This document shows, one piece after another, positions 2,548 through 32,896 of a stretch of 64,000 bases of DNA (position 1 is its first letter; every line of letters starts with the position of its first letter). A program made the translations under genes and the position numbers. The notes beneath the pieces were generated by a model. The model worked only from the letters and a program-made list of their open reading frames with translations. It was not told the origin of the DNA and did no database searches. The stretch comes from Octopus vulgaris (taxonomy: Eukaryota): assembly GCA_951406725.2 (NCBI GenBank), contig OX597827.1, forward strand, positions 16,926,001-16,990,000. The letters run 5' to 3'.

Positions 2548-3153
2548 TTTCTTATTTCTTTACTGCCCACAGGGAGCTAAACATAGAGGGAACAAACAAG
2601 GACAGACAAAGAGATTAAGTCGATTACATCCACCCCATTGCGTAACTGGTACTTATTTAATCGACCCCGAAAGGATTAAAGGCAAAGTCAACCTCGGCAG
2701 AATTTGAACTCAGAACGTAGCGGCAGACGAAATACCTATTTCTTTACTACCCACAAGGGGATAAATACAGAGAGTGCAAACAAGCAGAGAGAAACGGATT
2801 AAGTCGATTATATCGACCCCAGTGCGTAAGTGGTACTTATTTAATCGACCCCGAAAGGATTAAAGGGAAAGTCGACCTCGGCGGAATTTGAACTCAGAAT
2901 GTAGCGGCAGACGAAATACCTATTTCTTTACTACCCACATGGGGCTAAACACAGAGAGTACAAACAAGGACAGAAAAACGGATTAAGTCCATTACATCGA
3001 CCCCAGTGCGTAACTGGTACTTATTTAATCGACCCCGAAAGGTTGAAAGGCAAAGTCGACCTCGGCGGAATTTGAACTCAGAACGTAGCGGCAGACGAAA
3101 TACGGCTACGCATTTCGCCCGGCGTGCTAACTTTTCTGCCAGCTCGCCGCCTT
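2548..3153 (-). mobile_element. SINE family A, three 184-bp units plus head
   Basis: GAAATAC recurs at 2729, 2913 and 3097 (184-bp period); ends in CTGCCAGCTCGCCGCC, the reverse complement of the head. Confidence 0.92.
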
Positions 3154-9609: not shown

Positions 9610-10019
9610 ATATCAAAGGGAAATGGAATTTGATTAAAATTAAAATTTACATTTCCAGTGGTCTAACGTGTGGATATGTTTAACCCTAGGTTGGACCTGC
9701 TGAGGAAAATCAGACCTTGTGAGTTCACCTTAACTCGCTAAAAGAAGATTAGAAATCAATTGGTTCAGGAAACTAGATGGTAAATGTTTTTCATTTCCAA
9801 ATTTATTGCTGTCGAATTTTATCCCTAATTTTTGTGGTTATAGAACCTAGCTGTTCTTTCTAGCGTGTAGAATCTCTATAAGTGGATTCCTTATGTGTTT
9901 AAATATACAATATATCGTATATATATACAGCAGGTCCAACTTAGGGTTAAACATATCCACACGTTAGACCACTGGAGATGTAAATTTTAATTTTAATTAA
10001 ATTCCGTTTTCCTTTGATA

Positions 10020-14762: not shown

Positions 14763-14823
<61 letters not shown>

Positions 14824-14829
14824 TATATA

Positions 14830-15379
14830 TTAATAAATATAAGGGTAGCAAAAAATTCTAGAAAAAATTCTCCGCCACCAGCGGTCCAGTGATAAACAAA
14901 AGATAGTCAAAGACTATATAATATACATTCAAAAATATAAGGAATGGCCATAATAGGACATTCAACTCACTAGAAAGAGCAGCCAAACTCAAACCGCTAA
15001 TAGTTGTAATTCTGAAATTGAAAGAGAAATAAAAACGTTTACCCTTTCATCTCTGGACTATGCATAGTTTCGGCAAACTTTAGTAAACAAATTAAATTGA
15101 ATTAAATTTATTTACAACTGGCGTGCCTCGTCAGCAGAGAAGCCAAGGACGAACATATATCCACGAGGCAATGGTAAGGAAGCCTCCAGTCTATATGCTA
15201 TAATTTTCAAAATCTACCGCAATCGCGCGGTCTTCTCAGCAGCAAATATAAACTGCTGATTTAATTTCAAAATTAGTCAAAAAGTCATTAATTTCAGAAT
15301 TACAACTATTAGCGGTTTGAGTTTGGCTGCTCTTTCTAGTGAGTCGAATGTCCTATTATGCCATTCCTTATATTTTTGA

Positions 15380-15383
<4 letters not shown>
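14830..15383 (-). mobile_element. Hammerhead element: ~462-nt monomer plus inverted partial copy, inside (TA)n
   Basis: 14926-15018 is inverted at 15291-15382; a second rearranged copy lies at 16124-16455. Confidence 0.8.
15052..15138 (-). ncRNA. Hammerhead ribozyme with canonical core and long stem II
   Basis: tctg-CTGACGA-GGCA...TGCC-GAAAC-TATGCATA-GTC-caga; stem I tctg/caga, palindromic stem III. Confidence 0.8.
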
Positions 15384-15429
<46 letters not shown>

Positions 15430-15438
15430 TATGTGTGT

Positions 15439-16002
15439 AGAAATATTAAAATAACTAAGTCTCTCTAAAGAGAAACGGCAGGTTCCCGGAAAATAATAGT
15501 TATCGCCATACTAATATGGCATTCTTATAAAAATAAGTTTGTGTATCAAATAGCTAACTTAAGGCGATGGCCTCATGGAGCTAATAAGCGGACAGCTTTT
15601 TCTTATTTTATAAGAATATATTATATGGCGATAACTATTATTTTCCGGGAACGCTGTCGCTGTTCTCTTTTAGAGAGACTTAGTTATTTTAATATTTCTA
15701 TTATTGAAAACAAGTGGATGTATTCCACCGAAACTAGGTAAATAAAACCATCGAACAGAGATTGTCGGAAGCGACACCTACTGGCTGGCTACGCTGCATT
15801 GAAAAGGGGCAATACCCCGAAACGCGTCTGTAGCTGCCGGTCAAGTAGTGTGGAGCGACTGACCTCCCTTGTTCGAAGGTTATATGGATACAGTTTGTGT
15901 ATCAAATAGCTAACTTAAGGCGATGGCCTCATGGAGCTAATAAGCGGACAGCTTTTTTCTTATTTTTATAAGAATGCCATATTAGTATGGCGATAACTAT
16001 TA
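15439..16002 (+). mobile_element. Hammerhead element: ~355-nt unit with direct terminal repeat and inverted 5' segment
   Basis: 15538-15641 is repeated at 15893-16001; 15439-15537 is the reverse complement of about 15601-15699. Confidence 0.78.
15793..15834 (+). ncRNA. Minimal hammerhead, U3-A8 variant
   Basis: gctgca-TTGAAAA-GGGG caata CCCC-GAAAC-GC-GTC-tgtagc; 6-bp stem I. Confidence 0.78.
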
Positions 16003-16123
16003 TATATGTGTGTGTTTGTACAAAAATCACATACATTCACATACATACACACGCACACACATGCAAACTCACACACACAAACACACACATATATATTTTA
16101 TATATATATATATATATATATCT

Positions 16124-16455
16124 ATTCAAAAATATAAGGAATGGCGATAATAGGACATTCGACTCACTAGAAAGAGCAGCCAAACTCAAACTGCTAATAG
16201 TTGTAATTCTGAAATTGAAAGAGAAATAAAAACGTTTACCCTTTCATCTCTGGACTTGGCTGCTCTTTCTAGTGAATCGAATGTCCTATTATGGCCATTC
16301 CTTATATTTTTGAATGTATATTATATAGTCTTTGACTATCTTTTCTTTCTCACTGGACCGCTGGTAGCAGAGAATTTTTTCTAGAATTTTTTTGCTACCC
16401 TTATATTTATTAATTAATGATTTTTTGGCTAATTTTGAAATTAAATCAGCAGTTT
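16124..16455. mobile_element. Second, rearranged copy of the 14830 element
   Basis: Direct segment 16124-16256, then an inverted segment that spans the monomer end/start junction. Confidence 0.8.
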
Positions 16456-16459
16456 ACCC

Positions 16460-27756: not shown

Positions 27757-28172
27757 GGCGGCGAGCTGGCAGAAGCGTTAGCACGCCGGGCGAAATGCTT
27801 TGTGGTATTTCGTCTGCCGTTACGTTGTGAGTTCAAATTCCGCCGAGGTCGACTTTGCCTTTCATCCTTTCAGGGGTCGATAAATTAAGCACCAGTTACG
27901 CACTGGGGTCGATGTAATCGACTTAATCCGTTTGTCTGTCCTTGTTTGTCCTCTCTGTGTTTAGCCCCTTGTGGGTAATAAAGAAATAGGTATTTTGTCT
28001 GCCGTTACGTTGTGAGTTCAAATTCCGCCGAGGTCGACTTTGCCTTTCATCCTTTCGGGGTCGATAAATTAAGCACCAGTTATGCACTGGGGTCGATGTA
28101 ATCGACTTAATCCGTTTGTCTGTCCTTGTTTGTCCTCTCTGTGTTTAGACCCTTGTGGGTAATAAAGAAATA
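27757..28172 (+). mobile_element. SINE family A dimer (two units)
   Basis: TSD GGTTTTTATATAAA at 27743-27756 and 28173-28186; length equals a monomer plus 184 bp. Confidence 0.93.
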
Positions 28173-28395
28173 GGTTTTTATATAAATCATATCCCATTGT
28201 CTTAAAAAAAAGGACATGTTGTTTACATTAGTCATGTCTATCGAAAAGTACGGGAATGTCAATATTGGATCTATTTAGCCCATCGTGGGACTTCCTCATA
28301 GTTCTGCTCAACCTAATTTCTCTCACGACACTGAGATTTATCTGAGATCATTGCAGGAGATGCTTTCCCAAGTTACTGCTCAGTGGAATTGGATT

Positions 28396-32836: not shown

Positions 32837-32896
32837 TTGCATATCAAAACGATTTCGTGGTCAGCACTGTAACACACTCTCCACTCGTCAGTGCAA
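32837..32896 (-). ncRNA. Hammerhead ribozyme with canonical core, in an AT-rich element (about 32585-33205) flanked by TA repeats
   Basis: ttgca-CTGACGA-GTGG...CCAC-GAAA-TC gtttt GA-TA-tgcaa; all three stems form. Confidence 0.8.

Follow-up and report, generated by a model that had tools for sequence, protein, structure and literature searches.

Short units carrying a hammerhead ribozyme motif, found through two copies in a 64,000-nt stretch of Octopus vulgaris DNA (contig OX597827.1; hereafter the window), quite probably constitute a non-autonomous Penelope-like element: a borrowed reverse transcriptase (RT) would insert the unit into (TA)n, its RNA would be cut and then re-closed or re-entered, and its tandem form would arise from a single unit. 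The host genome comprises 2.8 Gb in 227 contigs and is rich in (TA)n. The weight of this reading rests on footprints seen across the whole family rather than on the locus in the window.

The unit and its two copies in the window

Copy 1 is a complete 462-nt unit (14831..15292), with the minus strand as the hammerhead-bearing RNA strand. It starts with TAATAAATATAAGGG at 14831, directly after the (TA)n target tract on its left side (14763..14830), and ends with GTCATTAAT at 15292. The unit has a GC content of 0.344 and a longest stop-free frame of 62 aa (54 aa in a natural dimer); no tRNA and no ORF were found in it, and its length across the family is 462-470 bp. Our own motif scan of the window located a type I hammerhead at 15050..15140 on the minus strand, in which stem I pairs 15140-15135 with 15055-15050, the core boxes are CTGACGA (15134-15128) and GAAA (15071-15068), stem II reads GGCA..TGCC, and stem III (CTAT-GC-ATAG) is followed by TC and then by the predicted cut at 15056/15055, that is, between unit positions 226 and 225. 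An Rfam search of the window at the gathering score gave no match. Of the 122 arms that span the motif, 98 retain an undamaged hammerhead core. Folded as a circle, the hammerhead strand reached -124 kcal/mol (z -6.8 against 40 shuffles), compared with z -1.6 for the other strand; its best predicted fold is one without stem I, the active hammerhead fold being predicted 6.2 kcal/mol higher. By eye, a splice-donor-like G/GTAAA is visible about 10 nt beyond the cut (window 15030-15045, minus) both here and in the sister family described below, with a pyrimidine tract and CAG shortly after it, and unit 104-140 on the plus strand can be read as TATA/initiator-like.

Two positions of the unit recur as outer ends of insertions and are the presumed start sites of reverse transcription. 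Fixed outer end 1 is unit position 1 (14831..14845, plus) and contains AAATATAAGG; fixed outer end 2 lies at unit about 92-98 (14915..14945, plus), where alignments extend to unit 85 because of TA likeness. The segment of about 95 nt that separates them is referred to as the tail. A predicted 16-bp hairpin at unit about 14-49 (14844..14879, minus) is the stop point of many arms. Copy 1 is joined to an inverted arm (15290..15394, plus) that covers unit 189 to 85 and terminates in (TA)n at fixed end 2. Between the two copies lies an unrelated inverted-repeat element (15432-16010), separated from copy 2 by (CA)n/(TA)n. The direct arm of copy 2 (16111..16256, minus; unit 85-229) begins at fixed end 2 after (TA)n, and its inverted arm (16256..16456, plus) covers unit 156 to 1 (16256-16412) and then unit 462 to 419 (16413-16456), so that the unit's end is joined to its start at 16413/16412. 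The outer end of this arm, at unit 419, differs from both fixed sites, and a CAC/CAT microsatellite lies to the right of the copy. The initial annotation had delineated a monomer of about 462 nt with a hammerhead on the minus strand and had pointed out the end-to-start junction of copy 2; both descriptions, including the coordinates, were borne out.

The window also holds other motifs and repeats. The element at 15432-16010 contains a hammerhead-like fold at about 15785-15835 (plus) with an altered first core box, the motif scan returned a further hammerhead-like motif at 32842-32891 (minus), and a 184-bp unit forms short tandem arrays at 629-1114, 2553-3103 and 27804-28179.

Most arms that reach the end of the unit continue into the next

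We assembled the family from four DNA searches and three pattern searches of the octopus's own genome, together with fetched stretches, and obtained at least 118 distinct loci with an average divergence of 6.2%; as the DNA searches scored the best 40 candidates only, this sample is biased toward close copies. A 24-25-nt exact pattern yielded 124 arms genome-wide, of which 108 were examined in full and 16 at the next base only.

Far from being unique to this locus, which the initial annotation had named as grounds for abandoning its reading, the end-to-start junction was crossed in 68 of the 77 arms that reach unit position 462: 58 align into the next unit and 10 carry at least 8 of its first bases. 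Five of the remaining nine become an inverted piece and four meet flank. The 58 free inner ends have nothing in common but (TA)n and widespread flanking repeats, so no longer linear element is apparent. The suggestion of a tandem or multimeric template is thereby sustained, and we regard it as supported that the template contained more than one unit length. No arm in the examined family sample was longer than two units, and no long array occurred among the 100 listed of 116 pattern matches. Same-strand pairs of complete hammerheads numbered four, spaced 467-470 nt apart, and were confined to 3 of the 118 loci, so that few loci would be able to release unit-length RNA.

Most outer ends lie at two fixed sites

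Insertions with two arms numbered 65 and those with one arm 59; of their 189 outer ends, 155 fell at unit 1-9 or 80-99, mostly against (TA)n, and 34 lay elsewhere; inner ends were scattered along the unit. Both fixed outer sites are followed by AAATATAAGG. The circular permutation that the initial annotation had expected from mapping copy ends on the monomer was therefore rejected in favour of two fixed sites about 95 nt apart. The two sites are also used in a coordinated way: among two-armed insertions with both ends canonical (n = 43), 40 combined one end of each kind, against 21.5 expected if the arms were independent (P 1.5e-9), while two had both ends at site 1 and one had both at site 2. 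The 108 arms anchored at unit 202-225, which are blind to starts beyond 202, gave a picture with which the wider count agrees, 51 starting at 85-97 and 35 at 1-7. The others comprised 7 called at 32, where a hairpin indel accounts for the call and position-1 sequence is visible alongside, 5 that enter the upstream unit and 10 that start elsewhere.

A minor third cluster of outer ends was seen at unit 150-158 (window about 14980-14988) in L003, L013, L020, L043, L047 and L250. Two further loci 18 kb apart, L281 and L282, have an identical arm layout (85-140 direct, 31-251 inverted) and are probably a local duplication.

Partial tandem, inverted truncated arm, one-sided tail and microsatellite targets are thus all present. 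This insertion anatomy, overlooked by the initial annotation, is the Penelope-like pattern: the available text of PMC8557442 attributes a tail, a partial tandem, an inverted arm and a microsatellite bias to Penelope-like elements, and that of PMC11167929 describes, for an anole element, reverse transcription that starts internally at two sites matching the tail.

Arms break at the predicted cut more often than expected

The exact pattern ends at unit 225, so the next base reports on the predicted cut. It was the expected one in 116 of the 124 arms and different in 8. Two of these 8 reflect a single substitution common to both arms of one insertion. The other 6 break at the predicted cut; they lie on separate contigs and are joined to different partners, the sequence turning into an inverted arm in four of them and resuming farther along the unit in two. 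From the background of 55 breaks in 17,239 arm-bases (unit positions 226-461), 0.35-0.40 breaks are expected at any one position (P 2-4e-6; 4-9e-4 after correction for 237 positions), and the second-highest position had 4, at a loop II length polymorphism. Microhomology of 1-2 nt was present in three of the six. Breaks at precisely this bond suggest, at the level of genomic sequence, that the RNA is cut in the cell; a structural stall at the ribozyme could produce the same pile-up. In the sister family, none of 37 anchored arms broke at the cut, a result of low power (chance 0.16 at the same rate), and one of 30 inspected arms folds back one base past it.

The initial annotation had read the stop of the direct arm of copy 2 as a mark of cleavage. 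This arm (L214) does stop within a few nucleotides of the site, but it ends at unit 228/229 and carries GAC(T) past the cut (16252/16253); with 3-4 templated nt beyond the cut it did not end there, and we rejected the stop as a cleavage mark. The proposal that the ribozyme cuts the RNA thus draws on the six breaks at other loci and not on this one.

Copy 2 has a twin on the same contig

Locus L275 (G000:C14:14582870-14585300), 2.36 Mb from copy 2 on the same contig, is a repeat of copy 2: its inversion joint and private variants are identical, and about 75 nt of host flank recur there in inverted orientation. The stretch common to both corresponds to 16001..16412 (plus) and comprises the microsatellite flank, the direct arm, the inversion joint and the inverted arm to position 1; unlike copy 2, L275 ends at unit position 1 against (TA)n. 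In a pattern search of the own genome the inversion joint was present at these two loci only, and the stop in L275 is the same event as that in copy 2 rather than a second independent one. The shared host flank and antisense arm go beyond the content of any unit-length circle. As the simplest explanation, one locus was likely copied from the other, in an uncertain direction, via a linear read-through RNA with unit 1-156 as its sense part; a DNA-level copy could be the alternative. To judge from this pair, unit 1-156 may suffice by itself for mobilisation.

The two passes of an insertion probably derive from one unit

Two passes within one insertion agreed at 137 of 157 subfamily sites (0.87 vs 0.54 for random pairs) and shared rare variants at 3.45 per 1000 sites (34 pairs), 12-fold over the 0.29 of random pairs. 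Abutting inverted arms behaved similarly, agreeing at 85 of 93 subfamily sites and sharing 4.18 rare variants per 1000 sites (39 pairs). No fixed difference between first and second units was found, the maximum being four recurrences in one direction at a site with two in the opposite one. Because a linear dimer inherited unchanged would drift into fixed differences between its units, and given the rare variants common to the passes, the tandem was likely rebuilt from a single unit, as far as genomic copies can tell. A circle would have this effect. Other routes to the same result would be a jump from end to end of a cut monomer, homogenisation within an array, and gene conversion between neighbours at a later time.

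These observations can be joined in one scheme. A tandem source would be transcribed on the minus strand, a GIY-YIG endonuclease would nick both (TA)n strands, and each strand would prime a cDNA that starts at unit 1 or about 95, usually with one site per strand; two-site priming would yield a head-out inverted pair with the tail on one side. Most cDNAs would pass both the cut site and the end-to-start junction, and about 5% would run off the cut RNA end (225), after which they would either jump or be joined to the other arm. A single unit could become a tandem if the polymerase rolled round a circle or jumped from end to end of the cut monomer, and linear read-through RNA would probably also be usable as a template.

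Circular or linear template

For the main template, two readings stand about even. The first, a strict retrozyme model and a narrow form of our preferred explanation, holds that hammerhead cleavage and ligation would produce a closed circle of about 467 nt round which the polymerase rolls. It would explain why cut site and junction are both read through, why the passes of one insertion have subfamily and rare variants in common, and why breaks occur at the cut. The strong fold of the hammerhead strand is in its favour, and the available text of PMC7229834 reports expressed retrozyme circles in coral, mussel and axolotl. Against it stand the scarcity of loci with two whole hammerheads, the absence of arms above two units from the examined sample, and the L275 pair, which requires a linear template or a DNA-level copy. 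In addition, where an arm had started made no difference to its second-pass stops (16 vs 16 arms, P 1.0), so nothing indicates that a polymerase travelling round a circle ran into its own starting point. The stop rate was three-fold higher in the second pass, probably owing to the hairpin at unit 14-49, and is therefore uninformative either way. We rate a predominantly circular template as possible, at somewhat less than an even chance.

The second reading, to which we give the same qualified credence, assigns the main role to an uncut linear tandem or read-through template; the ribozyme would be a passenger that cuts occasionally and ends a cDNA early, and template jumps or a master array would keep the units uniform. 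That nearly all pattern arms cross the cut speaks for it, and the L275 pair fits a linear RNA whose short sense part includes no whole hammerhead. Moreover, according to the available text of PMC11167929, hammerhead mutants of the anole element remain capable of insertion, and in vitro the main substrate is uncut RNA. On the other hand, a lineage with exclusively linear templates can change in length only by losing sequence and should gain fixed unit differences, of which we saw none; the rare variants common to passes and the lack of a long array among the listed pattern matches likewise speak against it.

The initial annotation had claimed direct evidence of a tandem or circular template. 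More than one unit is indeed implied, but for a circle the wording is too strong, because the 116 cut-crossing arms are equally compatible with uncut tandem RNA, with a circle closed again after cutting and with a template jump. Assembled contigs of four runs, which are only presumed to be RNA and cannot reveal RNA ends, strand or circles, cover the unit in short pieces.

We also considered, as a tentative and rather less probable extension, that the insertions are fossils of a complete retrozyme cycle, with a circle of ~467 nt, Penelope-type priming on both strands at two sites 95 nt apart, and ~5% run-off. If true, this would amount to genomic evidence of germ-line hammerhead cutting and of the use of Penelope machinery by a retrozyme, and a single coupled step would account for both the one-sided tail and the inverted arm.

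Sister family and autonomous Penelope-like elements

A sister non-autonomous family without an ORF has a unit of about 500 nt that is homologous over most of its length (window 9614-10012; loci L133-L162 and L290-L320). It carries its own type I hammerhead, whose stems differ in sequence yet are still paired, has two start sites about 90 nt apart, and occurs in tandem and inverted forms. The window copy of this family has a substitution at the base preceding the cut.

The genome further holds two intact families encoding RT and GIY-YIG, with proteins of 781 aa (L121-L127) and 775 aa (L163-L192), both apparently young. The 781-aa family has an upstream ORF of up to 479 aa without a Pfam match. 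In the 775-aa family, 76 of 76 scored copies showed 100% protein identity, and 3' ends fall at two positions separated by about 30 nt; both inverted pairs observed had one end of each type. Close to the 3' end of both families, hammerhead-like motifs whose cores are altered can be made out by eye. The terminal repeats of neither family are related to the unit, and we therefore infer the mobilising machinery. No terminal repeat matching a 25-unit profile turned up in 72 loci retrieved for their Penelope-type ORFs, a small share of the 6,136 and 30,321 first-look candidates. A match at L093 was considered as an autonomous partner and rejected as an isolated 65-nt fragment.

These data bear on a third reading, in which the pieces are 5'-truncated 3' ends (pseudo-LTRs) of an autonomous Penelope-like element ending in at least two units. 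The anatomy is the same as that of truncated Penelope-like copies, arms rarely exceed two units, so that an ORF farther up could be missed, and the searches are biased to close, full-length copies. Yet none of the 58 free ends continues into common non-unit sequence, and no arm ran into shared coding sequence, so that the RT and GIY-YIG between pseudo-LTRs that would mark an autonomous element were not found; ORF fragments lay near only 3 insertions in 175 locus files, 2 of them non-contiguous by coordinates. With unrelated terminal repeats in both intact autonomous families and the same ORF-less tandem design in the sister family, we regard this reading as improbable. An origin at the DNA level, by satellite-like duplication or fold-back repair, or a mis-assembly, with no RNA step, would suit the AT-rich, microsatellite-dense context and the L275 duplicate, which could be a DNA-level copy, but is very improbable: DNA events would not be expected to place the two fixed ends next to (TA)n at unrelated loci across many contigs, to pair them in 40 of 43 cases or to produce breaks at the ribozyme bond.

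Comparison with known elements

Retrozyme mobilisation, the role of the hammerhead in the Penelope cycle and the formation of tandem and inverted insertions are open questions in the literature, as far as the available texts of PMC7229834, PMC8557442 and PMC11167929 go. Three countable footprints described here bear on them, namely ribozyme-bond breaks, paired start sites and tandems from one unit, and the 462-nt unit is an easily tested substrate. A search of the open-access literature found no report of genomic ends at a hammerhead cut or of Penelope-like twin priming, and our literature search did not yield any account of an octopus element of this type.

In the twin priming of LINE-1 5' inversions, two target-primed cDNAs meet and an inverted arm results. 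Here, unlike in LINE-1, most insertions use a fixed second site, and the template sequences of the two arms frequently overlap.

The family resembles non-autonomous Chlamys elements such as MRC1 in its Penelope-type units, pseudo-LTRs and multicopy head-to-tail insertions, as described in the available text of PMC8557442. Chlamys elements differ in belonging to green algae, in being mostly hammerhead-less according to that text, and in resembling autonomous families at the 3' end, a likeness that we did not find for the octopus unit.

With endonuclease-positive Penelope-like elements the family shares a partial tandem with an inverted truncated arm and a one-ended tail, two RNA-internal starts, (TA)n targets and a hammerhead upstream of the starts (PMC8557442; PMC11167929; PMC4209133, as far as their available texts go). 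Unlike those elements it has no RT/GIY-YIG ORF, and its tail measures about 95 nt versus the 30-40 given for them in the accessible sources. Metazoan Penelope elements mostly have minimal, low-activity hammerheads in the account of PMC4209133, whereas the hammerhead here has a full stem III. Genomic ends occur here at the cut; for the anole element, the available text of PMC11167929 states that no RNA-seq reads begin or end there.

At sequence level, the features of animal non-LTR retrozymes are present, namely a type I hammerhead, a short low-GC non-coding unit and tandems. The family therefore likely belongs to this kind, as the initial annotation's comparison with retrozymes had proposed; the element type is already known and the family newly described. 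The available text of PMC7229834 (Cervera and de la Pena 2020) characterises animal non-LTR retrozymes as short tandem units with type I hammerheads and proposes Penelope machinery for them; according to the accessible part of a recent preprint, retrozymes derive from pseudo-LTRs and one of nine tested dimers was cleaved (Li, Clavereau and Pollet 2026, bioRxiv 10.64898/2026.07.22.740005). The unit of 462-470 nt slightly exceeds the 150-450 bp of the former source and lies within the 51-972 bp of the latter. The octopus family departs from animal retrozymes in its 4-bp stem III with a palindromic loop and its long stem II, and it consists mostly of dispersed insertions of 1.x units with inverted arms, not of arrays as described in PMC7229834. 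It is like them, by the same account, in its non-coding low-GC unit, type I hammerhead, head-to-tail tandems and well-folded predicted RNA, and in the co-existence of autonomous Penelope-like elements, and animal retrozymes are already known from another mollusc, the mussel, with units of 350-390 bp.
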